From positions 1 to 51,010 of the IMG/VR virus record IMGVR_UViG_3300042922_000517: DNA of 51,010 bases; one strand, 5' to 3'. The notes below the pieces were generated by a model that had not been told where the DNA came from, searched no databases, and worked only from the letters and a program-made list of their open reading frames with translations. This stretch comes from a virus (lineage: Duplodnaviria; Caudoviricetes). Both the position numbers and the translations under genes were made by a program. Positions 1 through 51,010 of this stretch are shown in pieces. Positions within the stretch are counted from its first letter, which is position 1, and each line of letters opens with the position of its first letter.

Positions 1-15
1 TCCGCCAACTGTTCA
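1..15. repeat. 15-bp terminal direct repeat, left copy (TCCGCCAACTGTTCA)
   Basis: Identical to 50996-51010; joining the ends restores a continuous reading frame. Confidence 0.95.
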
Positions 16-260
16 TTAACGGCAACCAATTCTGTAGTGTGCCCATCTACATCCGTCCGCAGCGTGTCAGCTGCAGCGCTGACCGCCTCTAAGCCGTTCT
101 CTAGCTTATTCAGGTTCAAGGCATTCACTGGTGTCCCCGCTTCAGTAATGGTCCCTTCAGAGGGCACGTGCGTTATGCTGCCGTCTGAGTTTGTGGTTTC
201 GATATACGTTCGCGGGCGCTGGACAAGACGATCTTTCCATGTTGTTTTGGTATACGCCAT
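1..260 (-). CDS. 5' part of the tail fibre/tailspike gene that continues at 50995-48835 (not in ORF track)
   Basis: ATG at 260 immediately after the stop of 261..692; reads MAYTKTTWKDRLVQRPRTY...GTPVNALNLNKLENGLE...VNEQLAD, in frame with 48835..51003 across the junction (806 aa total). Confidence 0.9.
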   Translation of the reverse strand, partial: MAYTKTTWKDRLVQRPRTYIETTNSDGSITHVPSEGTITEAGTPVNALNLNKLENGLEAVSAAADTLRTDVDGHTTELVAVNEQLA

Positions 261-3530: not shown

Positions 3531-5393
3531 TTACATCCCTCCTTTGGTTGTCGTCTTGCCGCGTAGGGCTCCATCAAATTCATATTCCTGCTTGATAATT
3601 CGCGATTGTTTTTTTGCTCCGAAACTATCCTCGACCAGTACAATATCACCGCACTCTAAACATGGATTTTGCCGCCAATTCACATCATAAATAGCCCGCA
3701 GCGCTTTCTCCTGCAGTATCCATTTACCTATTTCATAAGCGTGCGCCGGGTCATTAATCAGCGGGTTGTCCAGCTTCAGAGGGGCTCCGTCAGAGATTGC
3801 CGGATCCGTCAAAGTATAGGTAGTTTTGACAGTCATGAGAGATGTTCCGGTCACACGAACCCCTACAGCGCCGTTTGCAGTAATTTGGATTCTCAGCCCC
3901 ACATCATATGATCCTAAAACTGTGTATGCTGAAGCTCCTGTTACTGTGATGCTGCTGCTACTGGCGATAATAGGGTCCTGATAATCGAAAAACACAGTGA
4001 GTGTGCCGTCAATGTCCACTGTCGTATTGAGCACTTCCTTGCCAACTTCATCAGCGGCATAGTTATTCACGACAACATCCAGGCTGTTTATCAGCTTATC
4101 AAGTTTGATCTGAGGCTCTTTATACACATTGTCAAAGGTGATTGACTTCATGCCATAATCATTATCAATCTCCATAAAGGTGCTAGGGCTTACATATAGG
4201 CCTGGCTCTCCAATATAGGTTAAGTAGGTTGTGCGGGCATCCAGAGCTTCAAACTGACGAACATTCAGATACCCCGCTCTATCCTTGAAGACAGCAGCCT
4301 TCCCTGCTAGGCCAATACACTGCAGCGCCTTTCTGGCCGATAACTTATCCTTAAATCCGCTTGTTGGTATGTCTGCGAGTGCGGGATCGATATAGTAAAA
4401 CTCCACTCCGGACCGGAGCATTATGTCTTCAGCCAGATCATAGAGATTAGTATCCGATATACTGACATAATCAATAGACTCCAAGTTATTAAGAATATCC
4501 CGGGCCGTAAATGTAGTGGTCAAGGAACCTTCATCGCTCTGCCAATCGGTAAGATAAAATTTACTTGCCCCGATATATTCAAATACGCCGGGGGCCACTT
4601 CTACCCCTAGGGACATGCTTACCTCTTGGTTTTTGTTTAAGTAACGGTAAAACCCATCTGGGTTGAGGATATTGAATTCCTTGTCGCTGTTATCAACCGT
4701 GAATTTCAACTCATTTGACGGCAGCGTGTCACCAACAACATTCATTTGCTCGATGAGATTAACCTTAATCAACTTCTCGCCGTCATACTGTTTAATAATA
4801 CCGAAGTCGATTTCAATCACTCGGGCTCGCCGATACGGCTTAGCCCATTTGGTAATCGTAAGTATGATTTTTTTATAAGCGTTCAGGCCTTCTTCAAATA
4901 CATAAAGCGGACTGTTATTGCCAATCACATTGTCATGGTTGATTATTTCGTTATCTTCGTCATAAACATCAATCACAAAATCAGCAGCGTATTCATTCGC
5001 CATCTGGTCAAATACGATGGACAGCCCTAAAGAACTATGGGGCTCAGCGAATGAACAGGTTATGATTTGCGGAGTGGCGAACACTCCTACAGCATTACAT
5101 ATTTCGGAGCTCCACCAACCTAACTCATCGTCAGCTACATCAGAGGACCGCGGCGGAATACAAAATGTGCCGTCCAGCTTGAAATAGTCTTTTTCGAAAG
5201 TGGCGTACCTGTTTGTTGTTTTCCTGATCTTATTATCCAGTTGCCAAGACCTCGATATAAGCGCCTCAGAGGGCGTGGTGAACGTATTGTCCTCATAGGC
5301 AGTGTTATCCAGGATATCAAACTGCACCGCCGCTGCCGTCTTGCGAGTGGGAGCATAGACGGCGTTTTTGAATGCCCTTGATACATTTATCAA
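3531..5393 (-). CDS. Baseplate hub / Tal-like tail protein
   Basis: Position after Dit; C-terminal WRQNPCLECGDIVLVED..IIKQEYEFDGALRG motif typical of hub proteins. Confidence 0.75.
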   Translation of the reverse strand: MINVSRAFKNAVYAPTRKTAAAVQFDILDNTAYEDNTFTTPSEALISRSWQLDNKIRKTTNRYATFEKDYFKLDGTFCIPPRSSDVADDELGWWSSEICNAVGVFATPQIITCSFAEPHSSLGLSIVFDQMANEYAADFVIDVYDEDNEIINHDNVIGNNSPLYVFEEGLNAYKKIILTITKWAKPYRRARVIEIDFGIIKQYDGEKLIKVNLIEQMNVVGDTLPSNELKFTVDNSDKEFNILNPDGFYRYLNKNQEVSMSLGVEVAPGVFEYIGASKFYLTDWQSDEGSLTTTFTARDILNNLESIDYVSISDTNLYDLAEDIMLRSGVEFYYIDPALADIPTSGFKDKLSARKALQCIGLAGKAAVFKDRAGYLNVRQFEALDARTTYLTYIGEPGLYVSPSTFMEIDNDYGMKSITFDNVYKEPQIKLDKLINSLDVVVNNYAADEVGKEVLNTTVDIDGTLTVFFDYQDPIIASSSSITVTGASAYTVLGSYDVGLRIQITANGAVGVRVTGTSLMTVKTTYTLTDPAISDGAPLKLDNPLINDPAHAYEIGKWILQEKALRAIYDVNWRQNPCLECGDIVLVEDSFGAKKQSRIIKQEYEFDGALRGKTTTKGGM

Positions 5394-5407
5394 TATCTCC
5401 CACTCCT

Positions 5408-5749
5408 TTATAGTTCGATCAGATTGAATTTAATATCTTTCCAGCGTATTACGCCGTTCAAAAAATCCATAGCCCCAATACTCTTATCGCCGGCATAGAA
5501 TGACGCCGACTGCCGGCCGCCAGTGGGATCCGGATATGTTACGGTAAAAGTAATCGGCGATATCGTGCTCAGTACAAGAGAAAGTTGGTTTTCGGTCAGG
5601 TATTTCCACGATAATTCTAATTTCCGCTTGGTGGTTATACGCTCAATGATCATGCGCCCCCGGGCATTTCGCTCGGCCTTAACGATATCATTTATACCCA
5701 CCCTAAAATCTGAGGGAGTGGGCAATTCCACTCCATTGACTGTGATCAT
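5408..5749 (-). CDS. Distal tail protein (Dit-like)
   Basis: Immediately after TMP; ERNARG..KRKLELSW..YAGD..WKDIKFNLIE pattern. Confidence 0.75.
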   Translation of the reverse strand: MITVNGVELPTPSDFRVGINDIVKAERNARGRMIIERITTKRKLELSWKYLTENQLSLVLSTISPITFTVTYPDPTGGRQSASFYAGDKSIGAMDFLNGVIRWKDIKFNLIEL

Positions 5750-5761: not shown

Positions 5762-8700
5762 TTATGTTGTAGTGAGTATTGCGCCGCCAATACGTCCCTG
5801 CTCTTGTTCCAGATACGGATTCATTATGCGGGCTAGTGTAGTTCCGTCAATTTGCACGACAATATCCCCACCACCGGTAGGTGCTGAGCCGTTTCCGCCC
5901 ATTTGCATTGCTGCCATGACAGCGGACCCTAACGTACTTGCCAAAGTATTCACGAAGCTAGTGTTCTCCAGCGGAATAACAGCTTCCTTGCCCGCTTCGC
6001 CGATCATCGCCACTGTTGGGGAATCAACAATTCCGCCTCTAGCCAATCTAGGTATCCGCGGGATGTCGATACCGAATTTTTCTCCTCCAAATCCTGGCAC
6101 CCAATCAGGTATGTCGATCTTAATCGAATTCAGACCCAAAATCATTTGATTTACTCCATCGATGATCATATTTAAAGGATACTTGACAATTGACCATAGG
6201 CTGTCAAATACGCCTTTGAATATCGTTTTCACACCTTCCCAAGCCTTGCCCCAATCACCGGTAAATGCTCCTAAGAGGAATGTAATTAAACCGTTGAACA
6301 CTTCCATGATCCCCTTAATAACTCCACCAATAGATTTAATTACATCAGTCACAATGTTAAGAGCTATATTAAATCCCTTTACAAATGCTGGTGCAAGGCT
6401 ATCTATGATCATGTTAATCAAAGGGTCGATGAATTTGTTATAAATCATCGTTCCTAATTCAATCAGGTTCAGTACAAAGTCCATCATTTGTTTAGCAATA
6501 TCCTTGAATGTACCTTCCCAGAGCTCTTTGATTTTTGCCAGGAACGGCATGATTATAGGCTTTAGCACATCATCCCATAACCGCTGTACAGTTTTCATGA
6601 TTTTATCAAGCACTTCAGACAATCCGTCCAATATTGCCTGCCCATGTTCTTCCCAAGCACTTTGGATGATATCGAGTGTATCCAGTACAATTTCCTTTAT
6701 GATTTCAAAGATAGGTTTCAGTGTAGTCTCCCATACATCGTTAATCAGTTCTACAGCCCACTCAAACGCTTTAGCCGTTTCTTCAAATGCCCATGCTAAG
6801 GTTTCCGCAAAGATCGGAATGAAAGTTTCTTCCAATTGCTTCACAATCGGTAGGATAAAATCGTTAATTGCAAAATCGATAAATGGTTTAATCGTGTTAT
6901 CCATCAAGCTTTTAATGGAGAATCCGATCGTCTCCATGGCGTTAATGTAGGCATTCTTAACTAATTCAATAGCCGGCTGCCATGTACCGCTCCACAATTC
7001 GTTAACCATGTCTGTGGCATTCCGGAATACTTTAGAGAACTCTTCTATTGACCACACCAGCGTATCAGTAAATAACGGCACGAATACTTTCAAGAACTGA
7101 TTGACGATAGGCACGATAAAGTCATCCACCATGTAGACCACAAAAGGTTTGATGAACCCATTGAGCAGATTCTGCAGCGATCCGCCAATATCAGGTATTG
7201 CACTCATAAATGCATCCCTTAAGGACACCACGGCAGGCATAAGTGTTGATGTGAATAGCGCATTGACCGTGTCTACCACCAGCGTTGCAGTTTTCGAGAA
7301 CTCCGTCATAGCAAACACCAGGGTATCGGCGAAAATTGGGACAAGAGTTTCGTTAAGCTGTGCAGCTACTGGGATAAGGAACTGATTAAGCATGTAATCA
7401 ACAAATGGGTTGATCGTATTGTCCAACAAGCTTTGTATGGATGCTGCTATAGTCGGCATTGTCTCTAAAAATGCATTTTTAACATTCTCCAGAGCCGGCA
7501 GCCACGTCCCCGACCACAATCCCTCTACCACATCAGTTAAATTCCGAAATGTCTTTGCAAATGTTTCAAAAGCCCATGTGATTTCACTAGCAATAACCGG
7601 TGCAAAAGACTTAGTGAATCCAACCACGATGGAAGGAATGAAATCAAGTAAAATATATTTCCCAATAGGGATAAGTGTATTATCTCTCAACTGAGAAAAT
7701 GTCTTACCCATGTCATTTATAGCCGCCATAATGGGAGCCTTCATATCAACCAACGGCTGCAGCGCAGGGCGTAATCCTGACCACGCACCGGCAAACACAT
7801 TCCACAGATCGGCTAAGTCTGATCCCAATTGTTTAAGAATTCTTCTTGCTTCATCGGCCGCAGCTTGAATTGCCTCCGGTATTGGCGCTGCGGTGAAATC
7901 ATTGATTCCGGGCATAATGCCCAAATCACCAACGGCGCCGGCTCCCGCCCCGTCAGCATCGTCAGCCGCGGAGGTTCCTGATTTATCAGCCAACTGGTTA
8001 ATCTCATCAAATGAGGCGACAGCGCCTTTAGCCTCTTTGGCGGCCTTCTTTGCCTTTTTGCCAGCTGCTTCTGCGGCATCTCCTACATTTATTTGAGCTG
8101 CGGCCGCCTGATTAGCACTAGCAGCCTGCGCAGTCTGGCCTTTTGCCACTCCGAAGAGCGCCTGCATAAATGACGCGATGTACGCCGCCACTCTAGCTAC
8201 CGCATTAGCGAGCGTCTGCAGCAAGGGCAAGATAACATTGGCGATCGGCATAAACGCCTGCCCCATGCTCACCTGTATGTCTTTCATCGTCTTTGTGAGT
8301 GCTGCAATACGCCCGGCATAAGTATCCGTGTACTTTGCCGCATCACCGATCTGAAAGCGCGTCTCTTCAATGATACCGTTAACTTCAGCAGTAATTTTTT
8401 GCTGTTTGGTAAGCTCCGTGTAGCTTATGCCCTGTGCCTTTGCATAATCTAGCCACATCTTCGCGACATTTTTTGTGACCCCGGCATTATCTACCAGTAT
8501 CGAGTTTTCATTTTTCAGACCTTCTGTAGCAGACTCTACCGCTTTACCCAGCGTATAGGACGCCTGACGGCCAAATGCAGCGGAGTCCTTTAAGCGATTC
8601 ATTACGATTTGAATTTGATCCTCTGTATACCCTCTAGACGCCAAGTTCTTGTAAGCGGTCACGGCGCTAGTAAGAGGCACTAAACCGTCTTTAATATACT

Positions 8701-8998
8701 CCTGGATGTACTGATTCGCGTTCTTCATCGACATCCCATGGCCTACTACGATGCTTGTCAGCCCCGCCATAGCACTTTCCAGTTCACTCGCGGCGCCGAT
8801 AGCATCTTTGACCAGTTTGGCTATTCCCAGGGCTGCTATTGCAGCAGCGACCGCCTTAAAAGCTTTCGACATGCCGTCCGTAGCCTTCTTAACGCTGTTT
8901 TCCATCTGCCCAACCTGCCGCTGGGCATCCCGTATGCCGTCTCGCAATCCGCGAGTCTCGGCTGTAATCAGTATTCGCAGTTCATCAATTGTCGCCAT
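5762..8998 (-). CDS. Tape measure protein
   Basis: Long Ala-rich helical protein with W/F-P periodic repeats and C-terminal LARGGIV..GEAGKEAVIPL; likely start MATIDEL at 8998. Confidence 0.92.
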   Translation of the reverse strand: MATIDELRILITAETRGLRDGIRDAQRQVGQMENSVKKATDGMSKAFKAVAAAIAALGIAKLVKDAIGAASELESAMAGLTSIVVGHGMSMKNANQYIQEYIKDGLVPLTSAVTAYKNLASRGYTEDQIQIVMNRLKDSAAFGRQASYTLGKAVESATEGLKNENSILVDNAGVTKNVAKMWLDYAKAQGISYTELTKQQKITAEVNGIIEETRFQIGDAAKYTDTYAGRIAALTKTMKDIQVSMGQAFMPIANVILPLLQTLANAVARVAAYIASFMQALFGVAKGQTAQAASANQAAAAQINVGDAAEAAGKKAKKAAKEAKGAVASFDEINQLADKSGTSAADDADGAGAGAVGDLGIMPGINDFTAAPIPEAIQAAADEARRILKQLGSDLADLWNVFAGAWSGLRPALQPLVDMKAPIMAAINDMGKTFSQLRDNTLIPIGKYILLDFIPSIVVGFTKSFAPVIASEITWAFETFAKTFRNLTDVVEGLWSGTWLPALENVKNAFLETMPTIAASIQSLLDNTINPFVDYMLNQFLIPVAAQLNETLVPIFADTLVFAMTEFSKTATLVVDTVNALFTSTLMPAVVSLRDAFMSAIPDIGGSLQNLLNGFIKPFVVYMVDDFIVPIVNQFLKVFVPLFTDTLVWSIEEFSKVFRNATDMVNELWSGTWQPAIELVKNAYINAMETIGFSIKSLMDNTIKPFIDFAINDFILPIVKQLEETFIPIFAETLAWAFEETAKAFEWAVELINDVWETTLKPIFEIIKEIVLDTLDIIQSAWEEHGQAILDGLSEVLDKIMKTVQRLWDDVLKPIIMPFLAKIKELWEGTFKDIAKQMMDFVLNLIELGTMIYNKFIDPLINMIIDSLAPAFVKGFNIALNIVTDVIKSIGGVIKGIMEVFNGLITFLLGAFTGDWGKAWEGVKTIFKGVFDSLWSIVKYPLNMIIDGVNQMILGLNSIKIDIPDWVPGFGGEKFGIDIPRIPRLARGGIVDSPTVAMIGEAGKEAVIPLENTSFVNTLASTLGSAVMAAMQMGGNGSAPTGGGDIVVQIDGTTLARIMNPYLEQEQGRIGGAILTTT

Positions 8999-9419
8999 TC
9001 TTTTTAGCACCCCGCTTCCGGCGTTCAGCTTCAGCTGCGTATGCATTTACCCGGGCCTTCATGATTTCCCATGGTTGTTGTACTGGTTTTTGTTCTTTGG
9101 TATTTTCGTTTTCTTGAGGTTCACACAATTTCGGGAAGGCCTTTTCGAAAGGTGGGTACTTCTTAGGCGCATTGACGGCTATTCCCACCAGGGTTGCGAT
9201 AGAGTGCAATAACTCGGCCTGCTGCTTCAGCTCATTTTTGTTAATTTTCTGTTTTGCCTTAATTGCCGCCGCTATTTCCTTAAAAGTCATGTCCCAATAA
9301 AAAACTGCATCCACACCGCACTCAAGCGCGATAGGATACAGCTCGTCATATAACTCTGTTAATGTTTTGTGTCGGTCTGGCGGGTCGGAGTCTTCTACTC
9401 CGCCACTTTCTCCTTCGGA
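8985..9419 (-). CDS. Tail assembly chaperone, -1 frameshift extension (gpGT-like)
   Basis: The -1 frame is open from the T7 slippery run (9419-9425) through ORF 8985..9314. Confidence 0.8.
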   Translation of the reverse strand, partial: SEGESGGVEDSDPPDRHKTLTELYDELYPIALECGVDAVFYWDMTFKEIAAAIKAKQKINKNELKQQAELLHSIATLVGIAVNAPKKYPPFEKAFPKLCEPQENENTKEQKPVQQPWEIMKARVNAYAAEAERRKRGAKKNGDN

Positions 9420-9727
9420 AAAAAACCACTGACCTTAAATACCTCCATCAATACAGGGATAAGGTCCATATAGGATTGACCGGAGTCTACATATTCATCG
9501 TACATATTCAGTACGTCAGTAAATGAAACATTGGCTTGGAATTTTTGCATCGATGCATGCAGGATTGTTAATAGATCCGATACCAGCGGCATGTTGCTTT
9601 CGCTGAGTGATGTTACTACATCCATCGGATTCTTTCCACCCAGTTTTTTCTCCAGGCTCTGACTCGCAGCTGCCGTCAAGCGCAGTTTATATTCTTTACC
9701 AACAGCTTCAAAGGTCGTGTACAACAT
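9395..9727 (-). CDS. Tail assembly chaperone (gpG-like)
   Basis: Between tail tube and TMP genes; ends SGFFPKE at a slippery sequence. Confidence 0.85.
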   Translation of the reverse strand: MLYTTFEAVGKEYKLRLTAAASQSLEKKLGGKNPMDVVTSLSESNMPLVSDLLTILHASMQKFQANVSFTDVLNMYDEYVDSGQSYMDLIPVLMEVFKVSGFFPKEKVAE

Positions 9728-30688: not shown

Positions 30689-31102
30689 TTATTTAGCCTC
30701 CTGTGATTTACGTTGTAAGTATGAAACATTGCTTTCTGCTTCCTGCTCTTTTACCTTGACCCCTTTGTCGTCCGCGATGTCGCCGTCATTATCGATCATC
30801 ATTTGATTTTTCATGCCGGAAACGAGCTCCGCTGCAACCGGAGTACCGTCATTTTCGACACCGAAGATGATTTTTGTAGCAATGCCGTGCGCCGGTGCCA
30901 GCGTGGTCTTAACATCTGCGGACACAAGGGCAATTTCCCTTTCCTCGTCCGGCTTCAGTGTGATTGTAACTACTACCTTGCGGGCCTTCTTCCAGTCGGT
31001 ATTCGGGTCCTGGACGTTCTCAGCGATCTTCTGCAGCTCAATGTTAATCCGCTCCCCTACAGCTCCACCTGCTAATGTACTGAGATTGATGTTTGTCTTC
31101 AT
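30689..31102 (-). CDS. Conserved phage protein often annotated 'replication terminator'
   Basis: LAGGAVGERINIEL..NVQDPNTD.KKARK; GGAGG RBS supports start at 31102. Confidence 0.7.
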   Translation of the reverse strand: MKTNINLSTLAGGAVGERINIELQKIAENVQDPNTDWKKARKVVVTITLKPDEEREIALVSADVKTTLAPAHGIATKIIFGVENDGTPVAAELVSGMKNQMMIDNDGDIADDKGVKVKEQEAESNVSYLQRKSQEAK

Positions 31103-31197
31103 GCTGTCTGACCTCCGTATGGTTGTTTTTGGTTTTATAGGCACACCAGTTCGATTAATAGCTGCGGCGGTGCGCGGTCCCGGGTCATATCCGGCCC

Positions 31198-31797
31198 CTA
31201 CGCTTTAGCTGGAAACCAAATTCTATCAACGGCTGCCAGGAAGTCCACCGGCACCCTGCCGTTACGAATCTCGTAACCTTCAATCTCAAAATCGTCTATT
31301 GATATGCTCTTGCGTCCGCCCGGCACCTCCGAAGCCTGTTTGAAGACTCTTAATGCGACAAAAGGCAGGAGATACATTTTCCGGTTACGTCCAAAACTGA
31401 CAAGGATGAAAGCCATTGATCCGTGTCTGTGCGATTTCTCCAGGTGATCATATTGGTGTTTCTCGATCCTGTTCAGATTAAGGCGCATAAGGTCGGCTAC
31501 TTCTTTCGCTTCAAAATCAATCCGGCGGTCCCGGTAGATGCCATCATAGTCTACGGTGGAAGGCTTCTCGAATACCGCCTTGGTAATCATGCCGCCGCGC
31601 TGCTCCAGCACCTTAACCGGGGTTGGACGTTTATTAATAATGGCCCTGTTCATGGATTCGTACATTTCGTTGCTCAAGTCAATGTGGCTTTCAAAAATCA
31701 TCCCCCTATTCGCGTGACTGATGGGGCCCTGCTTCTTTCTTGTTCTTACGCCCATAAATACCACCCTTCCCATCTGGCCGCGGCGGATCAAGAACAT
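31198..31797 (-). CDS. recU: Holliday junction resolvase RecU
   Basis: NRGM.FE, KRPTP, STVDYDGIY, DFEAKE and HQ..HL motifs. Confidence 0.93.
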   Translation of the reverse strand: MFLIRRGQMGRVVFMGVRTRKKQGPISHANRGMIFESHIDLSNEMYESMNRAIINKRPTPVKVLEQRGGMITKAVFEKPSTVDYDGIYRDRRIDFEAKEVADLMRLNLNRIEKHQYDHLEKSHRHGSMAFILVSFGRNRKMYLLPFVALRVFKQASEVPGGRKSISIDDFEIEGYEIRNGRVPVDFLAAVDRIWFPAKA

Positions 31798-31900
31798 ATC
31801 TCATGTCATCGATCATTAGCACGCTCGGCACTTCATCGTGGAGTTTAATAACCGTTGCGATTTTCTTGTATTTCTTACCGATTTCATATTTTGTTGTCAT
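31706..31900 (-). CDS. Hypothetical protein
   Basis: Coupled start; operon orientation. Confidence 0.55.
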   Translation of the reverse strand: MTTKYEIGKKYKKIATVIKLHDEVPSVLMIDDMRYVLDPPRPDGKGGIYGRKNKKEAGPHQSRE

Positions 31901-32211
31901 CCTGCAGCCTCGGCATCATCTTTCCAAGGGAACAACGGCTTAATTTGATTTAGTAGAGTGCGCTCCGCTGCATTCATCCGCTCCAGATAGTAATCTTGCT
32001 GTTCAAGCTTCAACCGATCCTTACAGCCAGCACACACCGGCACAGTCGCCCAGGTGGTTCCAGCGTGATTCTTACAGCCGGGGACCAAGCAAGGCTTATT
32101 TACGCGCTTTATCCGTTCAATCGCCGCCTTCATTCTAAACTCAGGGGCAATACTGTCAGTGTTGATGATCTGCAGTAATTCCTCATTTGTTCTCCAGTTC
32201 AGAAAGTTCAC
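31897..32211 (-). CDS. Cys-containing hypothetical protein
   Basis: CLVPGC..VCAGC; coupled to the rep stop. Confidence 0.6.
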   Translation of the reverse strand: MNFLNWRTNEELLQIINTDSIAPEFRMKAAIERIKRVNKPCLVPGCKNHAGTTWATVPVCAGCKDRLKLEQQDYYLERMNAAERTLLNQIKPLFPWKDDAEAAG

Positions 32212-33194
32212 CGTTTTATCCCCTCCTGTTGTCTCCGTTCCCGTTCCGCTTTTAAATCTCTTGCCTTTTGCATCATTTTTTCATGTTCTTCTGGGGTCAA
32301 GCTGCCCTCCTTGCCGTCATCCTGAACAATTGGGATTTCCGTTTTCCCTGAATAACCGCCAGCGCTGTAACTGTTCTTCTTAGGTTTTTGCTGGACTCTC
32401 ATATCGGTCAGTATCTTCGGGTACTGTTCCCTCAAGTTATCCGGGCTGAAAATGATTGTCCGGTAAAAGTTATGTGATAATGCGTATTTTATTGTTTCTC
32501 CTAATTCAATCTCTGGAATCTTATCCTTTTCGAGGATCAGCCGAAAAGTATTTGCCCATTTTTGAAAATTAGGATTATTGATTAAATGGCTTGTTCCGAG
32601 CTCTAAAGCATTCTCGTAAGCAATATCATGAAATCGCTTAGCCAACCTATACACCCGATCATCCTCGGAATAAACGCGCTTAGCGTTTTTCTGAGAGGGA
32701 GGTTTTGGGGTCTCTATCTTTTTATTATCTTTGTTCTCTTTATTATCTTTATTATTATTGTTCCATCCCTGTTCCAACTGCGTTCCATCCCCGTTCTCAG
32801 TGCGTTCCAAGTCCGTTCCAACGCTGTTCCAAGTTGTCTTTTTATAGTGTTCAAAACCTTGATACATCGCGTAATTAACGACTGTAAAGAGCGTTCCAAG
32901 TTCGGTATCTTCAATTTTCAATCGTTCTTCCTTAACGAGTTGATCAATTTTTCTCGAAATAACGGATAATGAGTACTTTTTAACGGAACGGTTCTCAATA
33001 TATTCCAAATCATTCGCTAGATTTCGGTATGCCCGGAGAAATTGACCGCGCTTCACATGAACACCGGAGATCACTTTTCCATCCTCCGCATACACTGCAT
33101 TCCCAACGATGTAGAAGAAGATTCGGAATTTCGGAATGTCCTGCCATATTGGATTCTCAAAGATATCCCGGCTCGTTTGAAACGCGCCACTCAT
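32208..33194 (-). CDS. Replication initiator protein
   Basis: RDIFENPIW, KRGQFLRAYRNLA, TLFTVVNYAMYQ N-terminal wHTH; internal iterons; C-terminal IFSPDNLREQYPKI. Confidence 0.88.
   Translation of the reverse strand: MSGAFQTSRDIFENPIWQDIPKFRIFFYIVGNAVYAEDGKVISGVHVKRGQFLRAYRNLANDLEYIENRSVKKYSLSVISRKIDQLVKEERLKIEDTELGTLFTVVNYAMYQGFEHYKKTTWNSVGTDLERTENGDGTQLEQGWNNNNKDNKENKDNKKIETPKPPSQKNAKRVYSEDDRVYRLAKRFHDIAYENALELGTSHLINNPNFQKWANTFRLILEKDKIPEIELGETIKYALSHNFYRTIIFSPDNLREQYPKILTDMRVQQKPKKNSYSAGGYSGKTEIPIVQDDGKEGSLTPEEHEKMMQKARDLKAERERRQQEGIKR
32712..32836. promoter_or_regulatory. Replication origin: seven 11-bp iterons plus AT-rich tract
   Basis: GTTCCA (one GTTCTC) at 32760, 32771, 32782, 32793, 32804, 32815 and 32826, next to the AT-rich 32712-32759. 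Confidence 0.85.
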
Positions 33195-33211
33195 GAAACC
33201 ACCTGCTTACC

Positions 33212-33589
33212 TTATGTCTTGGCTGTCTTTTTCTTTTGAGGCTCCACAGCGTCCGCGTGAGCGCACTTCTCGCTGCAGTAATGCCGTTTCCTATATTTCA
33301 GTGATTTAGTTTTGGCAGGCAAGGTATTCGTACACTCGGGATATGCGCAGGGCCTGGAGAACTTCAAAGGCATTTGAGATCGTTTCGGCCCCTTCGTCCG
33401 GTCGTCATCTTTACCAATAGACATTTTATCCACCTTTGCAAGTTCCTTACGAAGAAGCATGATTTCATCTTTCTTCTCGGCTGATGGTACGCCGTATAAG
33501 CGCACTATGTCGGCCTGCTCCCGATACTTAACCGTAAGCCCCTGGCGCAGCCTCTGCCGCTCTGACAGGTCTTCTGACGTCTTGTTCAC
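33212..33589 (-). CDS. Hypothetical protein with C-terminal zinc finger
   Basis: CAYPEC..YCSEKC. Confidence 0.65.
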   Translation of the reverse strand: MNKTSEDLSERQRLRQGLTVKYREQADIVRLYGVPSAEKKDEIMLLRKELAKVDKMSIGKDDDRTKGPKRSQMPLKFSRPCAYPECTNTLPAKTKSLKYRKRHYCSEKCAHADAVEPQKKKTAKT

Positions 33590-33990
33590 TAACCCCCACC
33601 TCCGTAGGACATTTTGTTTTCCCGGTTCGCCTTAAGGTGCAACGTAAAGAGTTGTTGATAGACTGATTCTCGTTCATGCTTCCATAACATCCATTCTTCT
33701 TTAGCTGTTGCTTCTAGCATTCTCAATTCCATAATAGAGAGCTCAGCTCGCGTTTCCTTATCATTTGGACCTGTTGATGCCTTAGCCTGAGCGTGAGTAG
33801 ACTTTCTGAGGGCGTATACGCGCATGTATTCGCCTTCTCTAACGGCCTCTACACGCCCCATGTACATGTAGGCATCATTGAGCAGGTCCAGTTTAAGAAA
33901 GTCAGCTCCAGGCGCATCCCCGTCAATTTTCGCTGCTTTGGCACGGAGAATCTTCGACTCCTTAATGCAGTGCTTAACATCAATGTCCAT
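33589..33990 (-). CDS. Hypothetical helical protein
   Basis: Coupled ORF. Confidence 0.65.
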   Translation of the reverse strand: MDIDVKHCIKESKILRAKAAKIDGDAPGADFLKLDLLNDAYMYMGRVEAVREGEYMRVYALRKSTHAQAKASTGPNDKETRAELSIMELRMLEATAKEEWMLWKHERESVYQQLFTLHLKANRENKMSYGGGG

Positions 33991-34498
33991 CGGGCTGTCC
34001 GGCTGCCAGCATCAGGCCATAGCAGTTATAACCGCAGCACAATGCGTTCTTATTATCAGCCCTCACTCGCATAGCTCTTGCTCCAGCCGGAATAACATCA
34101 CCGCAGCCGGCACAGAATCGGGGGCTCAAAAGAGGTATCCGATTTGGTTCCTCCATTTTCAGCAGCAGTTTTAGTTGCTTATAACGGTGACGCTCTGGTG
34201 TCATTTGGAAATATCCCATACCTGCAACATGATGAATAAAGAGGTAGTCGATTTTATTTCGAATTCTTACCAACAAATCCTCATGCTCTAATACAAGCCG
34301 TTCTTCGAGCGTAAGCTCCATCTTTTCCCGAAGCACAGTTTGATTCGGTTCGTACCTCATTTTGTAGATTACTGACCAAAGCAGATTATCCCTATGACAC
34401 TGGGTAACTAACTCCTCACCAGTTTCATACTCCCGATATGGTATATTGATAAGCGCATCTTCGGTGTTAAGAGACATATTCATTGCGCATGCCTCCAA
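33980..34498 (-). CDS. Hypothetical protein with C-terminal zinc finger
   Basis: FCAGCG..CCGYNC. Confidence 0.65.
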   Translation of the reverse strand: MEACAMNMSLNTEDALINIPYREYETGEELVTQCHRDNLLWSVIYKMRYEPNQTVLREKMELTLEERLVLEHEDLLVRIRNKIDYLFIHHVAGMGYFQMTPERHRYKQLKLLLKMEEPNRIPLLSPRFCAGCGDVIPAGARAMRVRADNKNALCCGYNCYGLMLAAGQPDGH

Positions 34499-34790
34499 AC
34501 TGTGTTAAACTGTCCGTAATTGAATTTGTTATGTTCGTGTTCAGCTCTCCGGCTCCTACCCCGGTGGGCTGTTTTTCATTTGAGAAGAATAATGCATGGG
34601 TTTCAAACATTCTCCGTGTGGGGCCATCCCAGAGATTCAGCAACTCATCCTGCAGCCGGCGGCGCTGCTTTGCAGCATACTCAGCGATCTTCAGGTCTAC
34701 TTCCCCGCCGCGCCAGTGCGCATCCTGCTGTACCTGGAGCCAGAAGGCTATTTCCTCTCTTAAATCACGCTCAATGAGTTTTTTGTCCAA
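34467..34790 (-). CDS. Hypothetical protein
   Basis: Coupled ORF with RBS. Confidence 0.55.
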   Translation of the reverse strand: MDKKLIERDLREEIAFWLQVQQDAHWRGGEVDLKIAEYAAKQRRRLQDELLNLWDGPTRRMFETHALFFSNEKQPTGVGAGELNTNITNSITDSLTQFGGMRNEYVS

Positions 34791-35053
34791 GATTCCTCAC
34801 CCTCCCATGATTTCGGCTGTTCTGCAATTGCTTCATTCAGAAGAAATTTGCCAAACTTATTCAAAATTACAATGGCCTGCGGATCTCCGAATTCATCAGT
34901 GCCTTCAAGCCAGATACCGCGGAAATCCTCTTTAAAAGTCAATTGAAGATTACGTTCAATCACTTCCCCGGTTGTTGGGTCCGCTGCAATAATCTTTACT
35001 TCATTTGCCCGAAACCCTTTCTTAGTCACATCTGGGACCAGTTCGATTGCCAA
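34760..35053 (-). CDS. Hypothetical protein
   Basis: GGAGG RBS, TTG start. Confidence 0.6.
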   Translation of the reverse strand: MAIELVPDVTKKGFRANEVKIIAADPTTGEVIERNLQLTFKEDFRGIWLEGTDEFGDPQAIVILNKFGKFLLNEAIAEQPKSWEGEESWTKNSLSVI

Positions 35054-35064
35054 GTTAATCCCTC

Positions 35065-35808
35065 CTATGATTCGAATCCCATAAATTTATTGATAAAATA
35101 GCCAATTCCCTTGCCGGTAATCTTCGGTGTCCGTGTTACCTTCATTCTTTCACTGGCACTCCCGCGCTGCCCGATTTTGATTTCCATGATCTGCAGCTCC
35201 ATTGAGCGTTGAGTCGGCATGTTGTATTCTGAGCCGGATTTGATTAGGTAGCCCTGCTGCCGGAGCTCCCGGAACAGCCTTATCTCTCCGATATCAATTC
35301 CTTTCTGCCGAAGCAGTTTTGCCAAATCTCCAATCAGTATCGAATCCTTGGATACCTCCAGAGCCTCTGCGAACACGACCTTGTGCCGATCCTCGTCAAT
35401 CTTTGCCTCTAACGCCTTCCGGGCTGCCCGTTCCTCCTTGAGCCTCGTAGCTGCCTGAATTAAGAGGTCCGGATTATCTAACAGTTCATCCGTTGCATAC
35501 ATTCCTGTCTTCCGTATAGCCGGCAGCACTGCGTGAGTGATCCACCGTTTGAAGCTTTTGGCCTCTGGTTTTCGGCTGCCGAGTATGAGCGCATATAGCC
35601 CGGGTTCATTTACGGCAAGCATTTCCTGATATCCACCAAGGGTCTGTATTAAACGCAACCCCTTTTCGTCTTCATCGAGTCTCCTGGTTTGTGATTGATC
35701 TATATCGATTGCTTGGCATACATCCCTTGCAATCCACCAAGGTTGACCCTCATGTACGACCACTCGCACTTCCTGGCCCGCGAAATTGAATACTTGTAGT
35801 TGATTCAT
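35065..35808 (-). CDS. Antirepressor (BRO-N + KilA-C/ANT)
   Basis: VRVV..GQPWWIARDVC, NEPGLYALILGSRKPEAKSFKRW, IGDLAKLL and TPKITGKG motifs. Confidence 0.93.
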   Translation of the reverse strand: MNQLQVFNFAGQEVRVVVHEGQPWWIARDVCQAIDIDQSQTRRLDEDEKGLRLIQTLGGYQEMLAVNEPGLYALILGSRKPEAKSFKRWITHAVLPAIRKTGMYATDELLDNPDLLIQAATRLKEERAARKALEAKIDEDRHKVVFAEALEVSKDSILIGDLAKLLRQKGIDIGEIRLFRELRQQGYLIKSGSEYNMPTQRSMELQIMEIKIGQRGSASERMKVTRTPKITGKGIGYFINKFMGFES

Positions 35809-35822
35809 GTTGTCACTTCCTT

Positions 35823-36005
35823 TCAGGTAGCCACAGAGGTTAAATTAATAATCTCCAATTCATCTATAATCCGGATCATTTCCGGGTTATCCATATGCTG
35901 CCGGCGTGCCCGGTCCAGGAAATCCTGCAGCTGCTCTGGTGTGCATCCACGTTCTAAACAGTTTTGGAATATCGCTGTAAGACTGGGGCGCTTTCTTTGT
36001 TTCAT
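35823..36005 (-). CDS. Hypothetical protein
   Basis: AAGGAGG RBS before MKQRKRP. Confidence 0.6.
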   Translation of the reverse strand: MKQRKRPSLTAIFQNCLERGCTPEQLQDFLDRARRQHMDNPEMIRIIDELEIINLTSVAT

Positions 36006-36070
36006 ACCCAACCTCCTTAAAATCAAATGCTTGTCCAACTGGTAGGGAGCTTGTCCATCACGGGAGGCTC

Positions 36071-36199
36071 TCACGAGCCCGCTTGCACCTCCTCAGAGGT
36101 TTCAACTGCAGCCTGTTTCGCCCGTTCCATTGCTTTGACACACAAGTCATAGATGAAGTCCTGTACGTCCTGTGGAAATTGTTCGATATGCATCTTCAT
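36071..36199 (-). CDS. 42-aa hypothetical protein (not in ORF track)
   Basis: GGGAGG RBS; MKMHIEQFPQDVQDFIYDLCVKAMERAKQ.. Confidence 0.55.
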   Translation of the reverse strand: MKMHIEQFPQDVQDFIYDLCVKAMERAKQAAVETSEEVQAGS

Positions 36200-36243
36200 C
36201 CCTCCCTGTTACATGTGTATGAAATTAATGGAATAGGACGACC

Positions 36244-36507
36244 CTAATTTCTACCTGGAATAGCTTGCTGCTGAAGAATTTCGCTAAAAGCGGATTCAGG
36301 CCCAAAAAAAATATTGTCTTGCTTGGTATAATAGACACGCTCGATTTCCCAAACTTTTTCTTGGGAGATTCTTGCTGAGTCTTCTTCCCACAACCTCAGA
36401 GTAGCGTCACTAACATTCAATAACTTTGCCGCTTCTTTCTGAGATAAACCTAGTCTTACCCTCAGTGATCTGAGCGTATTTTTGAGGTATGCAGGTGTGG
36501 TTGCCAT
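36244..36507 (-). CDS. cro: Cro-like XRE HTH regulator
   Basis: TLRSLRVRLGLSQKEAAKLLNVSDATLRLWE; divergent from cI. Confidence 0.88.
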   Translation of the reverse strand: MATTPAYLKNTLRSLRVRLGLSQKEAAKLLNVSDATLRLWEEDSARISQEKVWEIERVYYTKQDNIFFGPESAFSEILQQQAIPGRN

Positions 36508-36535
36508 ATGCGCTTCACCTCCTTGAGAACATAAT

Positions 36536-36630
36536 AATCCGCTTTAAGCGAAATGTAAATACCTAAATTTCGTTTTAAGCGGATTTATTTTCGTGAAATA
36601 CGTTGTTTTTTTCGTTTAAAGCGATATAAT
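36536..36630. promoter_or_regulatory. Genetic switch: three operators (CGYTTWAAGCG) and divergent promoters
   Basis: Cores at 36540-36550, 36571-36581 and 36613-36623; TATAAT at 36625-36630. Confidence 0.8.
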
Positions 36631-36652
36631 AATAAGTAAATATATTAAGGGA

Positions 36653-37300: not shown

Positions 37301-37306
37301 ATAGAG

Positions 37307-38740: not shown

Positions 38741-38745
38741 AACGT

Positions 38746-47445: not shown

Positions 47446-48438
47446 TTATTGTACTAAATACCGTTTGTGTTGTTCCCGCTTACGTTCTTCGGTAATTCTG
47501 GCATACCGGAGTGTGGTCTGCGGATCCGAATGGCCCATAAGTTCCTGCACAGCGACCAACTCCGCGCCATTATTAAGCGTGAGCGTTGCAAAGGTGTGCC
47601 GCAGCACATGCGGGCTCACCTTGTCCTGAAGCCCAGCTGTACGGGCAATAACGGCTATCTCCCGCTGTATGCCCCGTTTGGTCAGGCGGCGATACTCCTT
47701 GCGCTCTGTCACCATCAGAGCCCCGCAGTTATCATTCCGGCTCTTCAGATATTTGTTGAGGTGGTACATTGCTTTGAACGAAAAGTAAACCTCCCGCTCC
47801 TTATTCCCCTTACCGATCACTCGACAACTCATAGATTGTTGATTGATTGCGTCCCGGTCCATCCCGTAGACCTCAGACAGCCGGCAGCCTGTTGCATACA
47901 TGATTTCGATAAAGGCCCGCTGCCGGACCGTCTTGCAGGATTCCCGCAGCATCTCCAACTCAGGGATTGTCAGAGCTTTCGGCAGCCGCTTCTCCAGCTT
48001 CGGCGTTTTTAGCTTGGCGGATGGGTCACGGGGAATAATCTCCTCCCCTGAAAGCCAGCCGAAGAAGCTTTTAAGTACGGACAACTTCTTGCCGATCGTA
48101 CTCATCTTGAGGTGATTGAATTGTCCAAGGTATGCCCGTATATCGGCGGCTGTGACGTTGTCTGTCCGCTTGCGAACGTGACGGAAGAATATGTGTAGGT
48201 CCAAGGCATATCCGTCCAGCGTCAACGGACTGAGCCCTTCCAGGCGCTTTGATGATAGAAACATCTTGAGCTTCTCTTCGCCATCCGGGTGCGGTTCATC
48301 TTCTTTGATACGCTGAATATGGTAATCAGACACAATGATAGATAGTATAGACTTTGTTCGTTCAACTTCTAAATCAGGGAAAACGTTATAAATCACGGCC
48401 ACGACATCGGACAATAGCTGCTCACTTGCATTATTCAT
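47446..48438 (-). CDS. XerC/D-like tyrosine recombinase
   Basis: SAM-like N-terminal domain; complete catalytic set TGCRLSE, GKGNKER, HVLRH, GHS, TLRY. Confidence 0.95.
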   Translation of the reverse strand: MNNASEQLLSDVVAVIYNVFPDLEVERTKSILSIIVSDYHIQRIKEDEPHPDGEEKLKMFLSSKRLEGLSPLTLDGYALDLHIFFRHVRKRTDNVTAADIRAYLGQFNHLKMSTIGKKLSVLKSFFGWLSGEEIIPRDPSAKLKTPKLEKRLPKALTIPELEMLRESCKTVRQRAFIEIMYATGCRLSEVYGMDRDAINQQSMSCRVIGKGNKEREVYFSFKAMYHLNKYLKSRNDNCGALMVTERKEYRRLTKRGIQREIAVIARTAGLQDKVSPHVLRHTFATLTLNNGAELVAVQELMGHSDPQTTLRYARITEERKREQHKRYLVQ

Positions 48439-48553: not shown

Positions 48554-48766
48554 ATGATTATAATTAAGCTATCTACTGTATTGAACGAAGCAAACATTTC
48601 TCAACGTGAACTGTCCAGGAGAACAGGAATAAGGCAGCCAACGATTAGTGAAATGTGCTTGAACAAAGCTAAGTCACTACCGGTAGAGAACCTGGACAAG
48701 ATTTGCAGCGAATTGGACTGTGAACTATCCGATATCATTGAATACAGAAAAGAGCCGCTGGAGTGA
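48554..48766 (+). CDS. Cro/C1-type (YozG-like) HTH regulator, divergent from the recombinase
   Basis: ISQRELSRRTGIRQPTISEMC..LDCELSDIIEY; AAGGAGG RBS. Confidence 0.9.
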   Translation: MIIIKLSTVLNEANISQRELSRRTGIRQPTISEMCLNKAKSLPVENLDKICSELDCELSDIIEYRKEPLE

Positions 48767-48797: not shown

Positions 48798-48838
48798 GGT
48801 TTTCCGGTATTGCGCAGTATGGTCCGTTTGTCCATTAA
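48798..48838. repeat. Distal copy of a 41-bp imperfect direct repeat (candidate recombination site)
   Basis: 27/41 ungapped identity to 50974-51010 joined to 16-19; identical core CGCAGTAT at 48813-48820; overlaps the tail-gene stop codon. Confidence 0.65.
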
Positions 48839-51010
48839 GCAACGCCCACTCCGAAGAACGTTAGGTTGTTGCCGGCAGTGTTGATAATCTCAATTTTGAT
48901 TAAGCCCATCCCGCTGATCGAAACGGTGTGATTTGCCGTATTGAGCGTGTAGTCAACTCCGTTAATCCGCGCCGTTACATCGCCAGCAGAAGTGAACGTG
49001 AAATCGAGAGTGACGCCGTATTTAAAGTGGTTGTACAGATTAACCTTAAACACTTTGCCTGCTGCAGCTGTGGTCAGGCTGCTATTATAGCCACCTGTCC
49101 GTGCAGTGAGCTTTGCACAGTTGCCGATCTCTGACCGAACCTCTGGATTGTTGAACCCAATTTTACAGGGTTCCGTTACCTTTATGGTCTCCTTGTTAAA
49201 CTCCGAAAATAAGAACTCCGCTTGATAGATGTGACCCTCTTGCCTGTAGTGTAGACCGTCCGGCACCAACGACTGAATATTATCCACCTTTAGCTGCAGC
49301 ATCTTGGTATAAGTATAATTGTCAACCAATTCGAGGTTGTATTCTTCCGCCAATTCCCGGATGACACTTAAAGATATGCTAGTAGTCTCGGCTGACGTAT
49401 ACCCTGGGCTATACATCGGATATGCAATCATTGTAGCCTGCGGCGTCACCAAGAATGGCTGGATGTTATTCTCAAAACACCATTCAATAATACCTCGCAT
49501 GGCCGCACGGAATGATCCGATGTATTCCGCTGTTGAACTGTTTTCCATCGGATCATTCAACCCGTGTCGGATGCCGATCATCTTCACGTCAGCATAGTGT
49601 GTGTTGGTCTTAATGATTCCGTTTATATTCGCAAGGGCCCAGGTTGCGTCCTTACCGCCGAATCCCGCGTTATAAATCCGCGCAACCGTACTGCCAGTCT
49701 CAGCCCGGATCAGCTCCTGCAGTAGCGTACAGTACGCGTCCGCTGGAGTATGGTCAGTACCGATTGTGTTGGCGCTGGTCGGATTCGTTGTACTTTCCGT
49801 AGTGCTGTCGCCTAAAAAAGCAACCGGAAACTTCTCGCCCTTTTTCCATGCAGAACAAGCATCAGCAAGCGTATAAAGTCTCTTCCGCGTTACAGTGAAA
49901 TTCAGCTTATCTGCGCTTATTGACTTGTCTGGTAACTCAAAATCCGCATTGGCACCTGTTGGTTTCAGCCCGTCTACCATGATTTGCTTGTAACCGAAAG
50001 GGGAATATACTTTACCACCAATGATCCGGCATAGCACGAAGGCATACCCGGTAGTGGATGCAAATATTGTCTGCGAAAACAGATCTCCGGTTGATCTGTC
50101 TACACAGATATAAGTAGCCTGGGTATCGTTATAAGTTATTGATCCGGTTTTAGCCAGAACAAAACCATCATCATTACTTACATAGACATTGTTTGTAAAT
50201 GCGGCTGTCTTGTTGGTTGTATTAATCGATAACTTAGTAGCGCCATCAATGATTTCTGCCCATTTTTTCGTGAGCAACTTTCCGATTCCCACAAAATTAT
50301 CCGGAATGTCAAAAATGGCATTAGCCGATTTTATTGCGGCTCCATTGACTGTTATGTTTTGAAATCCGAATGGACAAGAGACTTTTCCAGATATAACAGA
50401 CGCCAAAACATATGCGTAGGTTAACGTACCCTCTACGATGGGTTTAACAAATAAGTTTTTCGTCGTTCGATCCACGCAAATGTATGAAACTACGCTGTCA
50501 TCATATGTTATCGAGGATGCGTTAGCTAATACTGTCCCGTCATCATTATAGACATATGTGCTGGGCAACGAAGCTGTTTTGGTTGTCGTATTAAAGTTCA
50601 ACTTAGCGTTGCCAAGGATTTCTGCCCACTTCATTGTTTTGAGTGCCGCGACACCGACTGAATTATCGGCAACGCCTGTAGACTGATATACCGTTCCTGC
50701 CGTCCAGCCCGAGCCATTCCAGTAATACCATTTACCATCTGCAGTAACTACATAAGTATTTGTGTTGCCTGTCGGGAAAGCAGCCTGCAATGCGCTCACT
50801 GTAGCATAAGTGCCCTTCGGAGATCCACTTGCTAGACTTGCGACCAGTGTATCAACATATACCTTTTCTGCTTTTGCGGAAACTGCATTATTAGTCGCGT
50901 CTAGGCTGGTTTGTTCAGCTTTGCTTGTGGCAAGAGCATTAACCTCCGTCTTATTGGCTTTAACCTCATCCAAGGTTAATAGTTCTTCCGCAGTATCCGC
51001 CAACTGTTCA
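48835..51010 (-). CDS. 3' part of tailspike gene: two approx. 120-aa repeats plus SGNH/GDSL esterase domain
   Basis: SGNH blocks FLGDSTT, NAGFGG, HGLND, DGLHY; duplicated KWAEI..NDDG..YICVDR..PFG unit; continues from 260..1. Confidence 0.88.
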   Translation of the reverse strand, partial: EQLADTAEELLTLDEVKANKTEVNALATSKAEQTSLDATNNAVSAKAEKVYVDTLVASLASGSPKGTYATVSALQAAFPTGNTNTYVVTADGKWYYWNGSGWTAGTVYQSTGVADNSVGVAALKTMKWAEILGNAKLNFNTTTKTASLPSTYVYNDDGTVLANASSITYDDSVVSYICVDRTTKNLFVKPIVEGTLTYAYVLASVISGKVSCPFGFQNITVNGAAIKSANAIFDIPDNFVGIGKLLTKKWAEIIDGATKLSINTTNKTAAFTNNVYVSNDDGFVLAKTGSITYNDTQATYICVDRSTGDLFSQTIFASTTGYAFVLCRIIGGKVYSPFGYKQIMVDGLKPTGANADFELPDKSISADKLNFTVTRKRLYTLADACSAWKKGEKFPVAFLGDSTTESTTNPTSANTIGTDHTPADAYCTLLQELIRAETGSTVARIYNAGFGGKDATWALANINGIIKTNTHYADVKMIGIRHGLNDPMENSSTAEYIGSFRAAMRGIIEWCFENNIQPFLVTPQATMIAYPMYSPGYTSAETTSISLSVIRELAEEYNLELVDNYTYTKMLQLKVDNIQSLVPDGLHYRQEGHIYQAEFLFSEFNKETIKVTEPCKIGFNNPEVRSEIGNCAKLTARTGGYNSSLTTAAAGKVFKVNLYNHFKYGVTLDFTFTSAGDVTARINGVDYTLNTANHTVSISGMGLIKIEIINTAGNNLTFFGVGVA
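50996..51010. repeat. 15-bp terminal direct repeat, right copy; part of the proximal 41-bp site
   Basis: Identical to 1-15; overlaps by one base the core CGCAGTAT at 50989-50996. Confidence 0.95.

Follow-up and report, generated by a model that had tools for sequence, protein, structure and literature searches.

The window analysed here, a 51,010-nt stretch that is the entire virus record (class 'linear', CheckV 90%), begins and ends with the same 15 letters, and these letters lie within a tail-fibre gene. Why should a phage record break at this position, and with an overlap of this length? The identity of positions 1-15 and 50996-51010 is exact (TCCGCCAACTGTTCA, which reads TGAACAGTTGGCGGA on the minus strand, the strand of the gene). 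When up to three mismatches were allowed, the only further copies in the window were three matches with three mismatches elsewhere, and none of 100 shuffles gave five or more matches at that stringency. Removal of one repeat copy and joining of the ends yields a single ORF of 806 aa (260 to 1 and then 50995 to 48835, minus strand). Both the repeat and the joined ORF had been reported in the initial annotation, and both were reproduced by our direct comparison.

We consider the best explanation overall, with a probability of roughly 0.6, to be that the window is a closed circular or circularly permuted phage genome whose ends fall at one site (site A) of a two-site fibre-tip cassette system, the tips of which are swapped between genomes. 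The record would then be complete: a 50,995-bp genome, circularly closed or permuted, of a temperate Bacillota siphophage, broken at a site in its last tail-fibre gene.

Scans with PHROG and Pfam profiles reveal a standard temperate siphophage with genes mostly on the minus strand. They identify small and large terminase, portal, scaffold, capsid and connector genes, as well as a major tail protein, a tape measure protein and further tail proteins. A 143-aa ORF is listed beside a tail protein of 465 aa, and two small ORFs, an endolysin and a holin follow the recombinase gene described below. In its large terminase the phage shares 71% identity with Clostridium phage phiCp-D and 60-70% with phages of Bacillus and Anoxybacillus, and therefore the host is probably a member of Bacillota. 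A blastn search of GenBank phages with positions 47400-51010 gave no match. The elements of the window on which the argument depends are the following:

1..15, minus strand: end repeat copy 1, which reads TGAACAGTT and then GGCGGA, i.e. the left arm and 6-nt centre of site A
16..260, minus strand: 5' part of the tail-fibre gene, with its start codon at 260; the constant N-terminal part
711-2108: 465-aa tail protein
37307-38740: large serine integrase, mid-genome, accompanied by a CI-like repressor
47446..48438, minus strand: 330-aa Xer-like tyrosine recombinase, with a Phage_integrase domain and a SAM-like N-terminal domain
48554..48766, plus strand: 70-aa Cro/C1-type HTH protein (HTH_26), divergent from the recombinase gene and followed by a hairpin and T-run
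48808..48834, minus strand: candidate site B, which begins 9 nt past the fibre stop codon and where homology to related loci starts
48834 to 48826, minus strand: left arm of site B, weak
48825 to 48820, minus strand: central region of site B, GGACCA
48819 to 48808, minus strand: right arm of site B, TACTGCGCAATA, strong
48826..50995, minus strand: putative exchangeable cassette of 2170 nt, comprising the fibre body, the stop codon of the joined ORF (48835-48837) and 9 nt more
50987..51010, minus strand: candidate site A, which contains repeat copy 2 (50996-51010); an alternative allele in metagenome run X2 branches at 50995
51010 to 51002, minus strand: left arm of site A, TGAACAGTT
51001 to 50996, minus strand: central region of site A, GGCGGA
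50995 to 50987, minus strand: right arm of site A, TACTGCGGA

Repeat copy 1 encodes (N)EQLA(D), residues 82-87 of the joined fibre, and the body carried by the cassette corresponds to residues 88-806, which include a GDSL/SGNH esterase-like domain. Both residues 1-67 of the fibre and the N-terminus of the 465-aa tail protein match phrog_17334; thus a domain of about 67 aa is common to the two proteins, and the QLAD site is present in the fibre only. In a tblastn search with the joined protein, all 22 IMG/VR loci gave matches. The alignments span the joint (residues 82-87) in seven of these loci (L003, L004, L006, L008, L009, L012 and L022) and begin downstream of it in the other 15.

The repeat does not resemble a direct terminal repeat or a customary assembler overlap, being 15 nt long, inside an ORF and at the ends of a record classed as linear. 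Nor is there host DNA outside the two copies, as attL and attR would have, since the record stops at the repeats. The last A of the repeat (50996) is, as annotated, the first base of an 8-mer, ATACTGCG (50996 to 50989, minus strand), which had been proposed as a recombination core. This 8-mer (plus strand CGCAGTAT) occurs exactly twice in the window, at 50989-50996 and 48813-48820, but the count alone is not significant because 27 of 100 shuffles contain at least two copies. We therefore dropped the 8-bp core as the crossover in favour of arms surrounding a 6-nt centre.

Three soil-metagenome runs (X1, X2 and X3) contain this stretch, and two of them may be its source. We compared their Logan contigs (k=31) over positions 31011-51010, and X2 was the most informative with respect to the two sites. 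One unbroken contig covers 31011-47671 in this run, which indicates that the serine-integrase region is intact and fits the earlier remark that the mid-window attP looks unrecombined. The following contig stops at 48825. From a single 30-mer (48796-48825), two contigs then depart: record 12 (2230 nt, depth 39.1) is the window allele and runs to 51010, and record 13 (2718 nt, depth 22.9) shares with the window only positions 48796-48825 and 50987-51010. Between 48825 and 50987, record 13 holds 2649 different letters where the window has 2161. The two depths add up to roughly that of the backbone, about 55.

Both records begin 15 nt beyond 51010. Given that k is 31, the shared 30-mer must end at 50996, with the first difference at 50995, and this branch base stands directly after ..CAGTTGGCGGA. 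The segment that is swapped thus extends from the first base after the centre of site A to the last base before the centre of site B, and one platform carries different cassettes between the same pair of sites, with both boundaries evident in one sample. The initial annotation had suggested looking for alternatives after the 15-mer, and they are found where it expected them. Within the 9 nt after the branch, where the alleles rejoin (50987-51010), the alternative allele has two mismatches, and it therefore lacks the exact 8-mer. Thirty letters of the end of this alternative filling are known.

The contigs of X1 break at the same two places. A fibre-body contig (record 8, depth 57.7) stops exactly at 51010, the last base of the 15-mer, and a loose end lies behind 48825. 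On the gene strand this loose end reads ..CAGTA before GGACCA TACTG, which is a better inverted repeat than the window's own left arm of site B. The summed depth is 50-60 over 47019-51010 and 39-44 across most of the remaining backbone. From the contig end and these depths, we infer a second X1 genome that shares the recombinase, the HTH gene and the fibre body, and that differs N-terminal of the 15-mer. Run X3, in which depth is low and contigs are short, shows nothing at site A or B. Among the Logan contigs over 31011-51010 there was no recombination product, be it an excised circle, an empty platform or a hybrid junction, and the two coexisting alleles could be old strains and not the result of ongoing exchange. 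Exact scans of the metagenome_contigs and viral_contigs collections, which may omit the window's own record, returned nothing for the last 26 nt of the window or for the 30-mer at 48796-48825.

The length of the overlap can be explained by the same polymorphism. As the initial annotation pointed out, 15 bp is shorter than usual assembler k-mer overlaps, and we could reproduce an overlap of this kind with a toy de Bruijn graph built from random sequences. When only the body varies, the graph produces a 15-letter overhang as in X2. When both flanks vary, unitigs begin and end on the shared word, at k=31 as well as at k=55. If a short word S is the sole sequence shared and both of its flanks are variable, every k-mer that spans it would be specific to one combination of flanks; the backbone unitig would open with the first letter of S, and the unitig of the body would close with its final letter. 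Any contig that leads round the circle from backbone into body would consequently start and end with S at any k. Thus, if both flanks of the 15-nt word are polymorphic in the source community, graphs branch at both of its edges, the ends carry exactly that word, and the overlap is shorter than any usual k. On this account the source sample should contain three or all of the four possible combinations of flanks. An end overlap that falls short of the assembler's k can therefore mark a site that is polymorphic on both sides and need not be noise, and genomes with such overlaps would be wrongly classed as linear fragments.

The gene nearest to site B, apart from the small HTH gene, encodes the 330-aa recombinase. 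Its match to PF00589 scores 116.6 bits against a cut-off of 27.1, which places the protein in the tyrosine recombinase superfamily. Residues R186, H277, R280, H303 and Y312, which we take to be the catalytic residues, are invariant in 12 homologues, and the protein looks intact as judged from its sequence. The best relative of solved structure is XerD (1a0p, E=1.9e-38). The scores nevertheless fall below the curated cut-offs for XerC (215 vs 335), XerD (209 vs 330) and XerA (212.8 vs 220), as well as below those for integron integrases (TIGR02249, 86.4 vs 265; NF011946, 53 vs 435), and on the basis of these profiles we classify the protein as Xer-like and not as an equivalog of XerC, XerD or XerA. 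PF02899 and PF13495 match residues 58-134 and 1a0p aligns from residue 57; the first approximately 55 residues match nothing.

No close relative of the recombinase was found in a cultured phage, the best being that of Clostridium phage phiCp-D with 37.9% identity. The recombinases of phiCp-D and Terrisporobacter phage TPELB_ph1, which are 36-38% identical to that of the window, occupy the same position in a fibre, recombinase, holin order. In the records of these two phages (MW478291.1 and PP197244.1, our L063 and L064), a Xer-like 'integrase' follows the last tail gene and precedes the holin; a further integrase of larger size is present in TPELB_ph1, and ParM in phiCp-D. A search of both for words shared between the fibre gene and the fibre-recombinase spacer uncovered AT-rich noise only.

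Closer homologues of the recombinase (60-93% identity) are present in 12 IMG/VR loci (L039-L050), all of which lie in tail or lysis regions, and six of the 12 have a homologue of the divergent HTH gene beside the recombinase. Sites resembling site B have the form ..GTA, GGAnnA, TACTGCGCAnTA. They are located upstream of the HTH/recombinase pair in eight of the 12 loci, in 1-4 copies and a single orientation; in L045 and L047-L049 no B-type site was found within four mismatches. The first copy of the site lies 0-13 nt past the stop codon of a large tail ORF in all nine cases, the window included. DNA homology between the window and L039, L040 or L041 starts 0-7 nt from site B and stops at the stop codon of the recombinase gene, and homology between loci starts 0-3 nt before the centre of B in general and 2-3 nt before it among the relatives. 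In L039, L041 and L050 the sites form arrays of 2-4 with small inserts, and relative to L039 and L050 an extra 867 nt are inserted between two sites of L041. We also considered whether the site might be an operator of the HTH protein, as site B includes a 12-nt near-palindrome; this was rejected because it leaves the in-frame A site and the borders of the module unexplained.

Some of these loci have peculiarities of their own. Immediately after one class of B-type site comes a tandem GTGTGTATTGAT-like repeat (L039:4940-4965, L041:4126-4150 and L050:4789-4812), which opens a unit of 350-640 nt that is common to the three loci (78-87% identity) and may hold accessory binding sites. In L041, Dit- and Tal-type tail genes are found downstream of the recombinase, after the fibre (7074-9719), an unusual order that may reflect two adjacent prophages or a rearrangement. 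In L040, on a contig shared with L065, the segment from A to B includes, besides the fibre body, a 410-aa membrane protein (4355-5587) whose weak match to Wzy_C (O-antigen ligase-like) stays under the Pfam cut-off; a gene that modifies the cell surface may be carried along with the receptor-binding tip there.

Conservation at site A is apparent at the level of individual codons. In all ten fibre genes that stand beside the module (the window, L039-L044, L046, L047 and L050), the Q-L-A-D/E motif is spelled by an identical 11-nt sequence, CAGTTGGCGGA, even though the N-termini of these fibres are unrelated and the motif falls anywhere from residue 61 to residue 168. Eight distinct fibre homologues lack the module but encode QLA(D/E), and two of them use these 11 nt. 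Site A forms an island of 26-36 nt between genes that otherwise cannot be aligned, and words from CAGTTGGCGGA top an unbiased count of shared 12-mers. Where proviruses of isolate genomes have this site, it is within fibre ORFs that are intact.

When 80 recombinase loci were searched, the exact 11-mer was present in 12, including all seven whose recombinase is at least 74% identical, as well as L090, L091, L127 and L108. Every copy lies 1.4-4.4 kb upstream and on the recombinase strand; the opposite strand has none. Ten of the 12 loci have one exact copy, L108 has two, and none is inverted. The 11-mer was absent from all 23 loci of the clade with recombinases of 62-71% identity, and a search for a common A word in that clade was likewise negative. 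The two copies in L108 (positions 4015 and 6096 of the locus) lie in two fibres on one 121-kb viral contig, whose genes are alike over approximately 170 nt up to the site, continue alike until 12 nt into it, and then diverge. A prophage of Sporolactobacillus nakayamae (L033) has the 11-mer in a fibre (10052), with no recombinase within 10 kb, and a perfect right arm of B directly after the stop codon of the next, separate GDSL esterase gene (12785); this locus looks like a site pair that lacks its enzyme.

A relationship between the two sites becomes evident in loci whose arms differ from those of the window. In four specificity groups, the 9 nt before the centre of A are an inverted copy of the right arm of B:

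B right arm TACTGCGCA, A left arm TGCGCAGTT: L066, L067 and L069
B right arm AATTGCGCA, A left arm TGCGCAATT: L078 (9/9 match) and L077
B right arm TTATGCGCA, A left arm TGCGCATAA: L087 (9/9 match; the encoded motif becomes AHKAD)
B right arm TAATGCGCA, A left arm TGCGCATTC: L073

The search behind this list examined 18 loci for the inverted B arm, with one mismatch allowed, followed by GG, and gave seven matches on the expected strand compared with none on the opposite strand, which served as the control. All seven lie 1.85-3.2 kb upstream of B; six are in ORFs of 483-864 aa and one (L073) is in an ORF of 248 aa. The other 11 loci gave no match at that stringency, and they include the window, in which the left arm of A (TGAACAGTT) agrees with the inverted B arm at six of nine positions and the left arm of B matches poorly. 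Outside the CAGT group, an A-like partner was found in only four of nine tested loci. The centres, in contrast to the arms, are not alike: those of A are GGCGGA or GGCTGA, those of B are GGACCA, GGAGAA, GGACAA, GGACGA, GGAGAC and others, and the A centre differs from the B centre in all 13 paired loci listed. The loci therefore keep, as a pair, two sites with shared arms and unlike centres. The candidate recombination site of the initial annotation accordingly corresponds to a conserved, co-varying pair of sites beside a Xer-like recombinase in relatives of the phage.

These characteristics suggest a mechanism by which fibre tips could be traded. Site A would lie in frame at the junction between the constant N-terminal part of 87 residues and the receptor-binding body. 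The platform would retain the strong arms (A-left and B-right, which are mutually inverted copies), and the cassette would carry the weak ones. Recombination of A with A and of B with B between two co-resident genomes would then swap the fibre tip, as in recombinase-mediated cassette exchange, and crossovers within both centres would leave exactly the swapped segment that is observed in X2. The centres of A and B are unlike, and hence a deletion by A x B, which would destroy the fibre, should be disfavoured. Several isolate genomes contain two module-bearing prophages, which would offer an opportunity for exchange. We infer that the neighbouring recombinase makes the exchanges at the predicted crossover positions and that exchange is still going on. 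The earlier claim of an active recombination site is supported to this extent by population structure and comparative data, and not by activity that was observed. A shufflon (inversion) was also considered and was rejected, as no inverted copies of the 15-mer (up to three mismatches) or the 11-mer (up to one mismatch) occur near the locus.

Several other explanations for the end repeat and the sites deserve consideration. Circular contigs get cut anywhere, such that the break might be an arbitrary linearisation artefact and the 15-nt overlap meaningless. We judge this to be very improbable, because the ends match to the base independent branch points in two Logan assemblies, the overlap consists of the conserved arm and centre of site A, and the k-independent graph argument predicts exactly this overlap. 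Even harder to credit is the second reading offered by the initial annotation, in which integration occurred through the tail-gene site, the window is bounded by attL/attR-like ends and the fibre gene would be restored on excision. Duplication of an att site would indeed give a direct end repeat and an ORF that is restored by joining. However, the record has no host flanks, the X2 contigs continue beyond 51010 at phage depth, and proviruses of isolate genomes have the site inside intact fibre ORFs; moreover, the phage itself encodes a serine integrase, together with a CI-like repressor, in a region that is unbroken in X2. The first reading of that annotation, namely circularity with an assembly break caused by alternative sequences beyond the site, is instead borne out by the alternative fillings on one backbone in X2.

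Ordinary mosaicism, which we regard as unlikely but by no means negligible, would have coexisting strains exchange receptor-binding modules by homologous or microhomology recombination at the QLAD linker and the conserved downstream DNA, and would leave another job to the recombinase, such as cyclisation or multimer resolution, as for Cre/loxP. The tips of fibres are well-known mosaic modules, the protein motif QLA(D/E) is widespread among these fibres, and no recombination product was seen in contigs; in addition, phiCp-D, with its fibre, recombinase, holin order, has ParM and may therefore be a plasmid prophage. What mosaicism leaves unexplained is the codon-level identity of the 11-mer (10/10 fibres with the module vs 2/8 without), the covariation of A-left with B-right, including the case in which the encoded motif changes, the repeated sites of the same orientation around small inserts, and the A and B pair that is kept in L033 without a recombinase. 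Alternatively, the site pair might excise and reinsert the fibre-tip cassette as a circle, in the manner of integron attI x attC capture, and not by double exchange. The sites are direct repeats, L039, L041 and L050 have arrays of 2-4 sites with small inserts, the extra insert of L041 is situated exactly at a site, and the strong arms of A and B together would make one complete inverted-repeat site. We nonetheless find capture of this type improbable, given that the A and B centres (GGCGGA or GGCTGA vs GGAnnA) differ in 13 of 13 paired loci listed, which should hinder A x B, that excision would destroy the fibre, and that the protein falls far under the cut-off of the integron-integrase model (86 vs 265 bits).

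A full-text literature search uncovered no description of a two-site fibre cassette system with direct sites. The closest system found in print is the Rin shufflon of Bifidobacterium prophages, wherein a XerD-like recombinase adjoins the receptor-binding-protein gene and inverts DNA among several tips (Mavrich et al. 2018, PMC6109161). The two systems share a XerD-like tyrosine recombinase (in Rin one without an arm-binding domain) next to the receptor-binding-protein gene, a short site (11 bp in Rin) at the joint of constant N-terminal and variable C-terminal parts, and a separate integrase elsewhere in the phage (PMC6109161). Rin stores alternative tips in the same genome and inverts them (PMC6109161), whereas here a single tip is present and the other tip is in another genome of the population. 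Unlike the Rin sites, the sites in the window are direct and mutually unlike, with no inverted copy. The serine-invertase tail-fibre switches Gin, Cin and Min of Mu, P1 and p15B, as described in the same paper, also alter host range by site-specific recombination at the constant/variable joint of the fibre; they rely on serine recombinases, inverted sites and stored tips (PMC6109161), whereas our locus has a tyrosine recombinase, direct sites and nothing stored. Another Xer-like gene within a structural module is gp50 of Tyrovirus, whose site has 11-bp inverted repeats around a 6-bp core and whose location the authors call 'especially curious' (PMC9703825).

Integrons (IntI, attI and attC) resemble the present system in having a primary site beside the recombinase gene, cassettes on one side of it and gene-sized units that end at sites, with small arrays in relatives; in L039, L041 and L050, the primary site lies by the recombinase gene and one-sided cassettes end in sites. 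They differ in that our protein scores 86 bits with the IntI model against a cut-off of 265, that the cassette is an in-frame part of a structural gene, and that the sites are predicted to be 24-nt double-stranded sites with inverted arms and not folded attC sites. The single-recombinase Xer/dif systems (XerA, XerH and XerS) are similar with regard to the protein, which is nearest to XerD and XerA, and to the short inverted arms around a 6-nt centre; here, unlike in those systems, the protein is under the XerC, XerD and XerA cut-offs and two unlike sites bracket a gene segment in place of one resolution site. In engineered recombinase-mediated cassette exchange, heterospecific lox or FRT sites that are mutually inert flank a replaceable segment. 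That arrangement is a laboratory design, and our literature search found no natural phage counterpart. The locus would thus represent a site-specific form of fibre diversification that differs from the published ones, and it adds population evidence in the form of two fillings that share one backbone and the same two sites within a single sample.

What a phage can infect is limited mainly by its host range, and fibre tips are known to move between phages, a movement that is usually attributed to chance homologous recombination. We give even odds to a broader proposal, namely that temperate phages of Bacillota possess a natural equivalent of cassette exchange, wherein a dedicated Xer-like recombinase and two heterospecific sites, one in frame in the fibre gene and one behind its stop codon, allow whole receptor-binding tips, sometimes with a linked receptor-modifying gene, to be traded between co-resident phages and prophages. 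Exchange in this soil community would then be recent enough for three or more of the four possible pairings of flanks to be present together, breaking the assembly at the site. If this proposal is correct, a dedicated enzyme and two docking sites would make tip exchange programmed, fast and precise, which would explain the clean module borders in Bacillota prophages and give a role to the 'curious' Xer-like genes inside phage structural modules. The sites would also provide a ready-made docking system for studying fibre swaps.

The soil contigs depart from the window at several other positions. Contigs of X1 skip 553 and 181 nt at 41926-42480 and 43066-43248, respectively, which suggests strain-level indels in an early or moron region. 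At 38090, inside the serine-integrase gene, a contig with an identical loose end in X2 and X3 leaves the reference, and it may derive from a related element that shares part of the integrase. A contig of depth 80-94 in all three runs matches the window over 18-25 nt only (34196-34220 and 39586-39603) and probably belongs to another organism.
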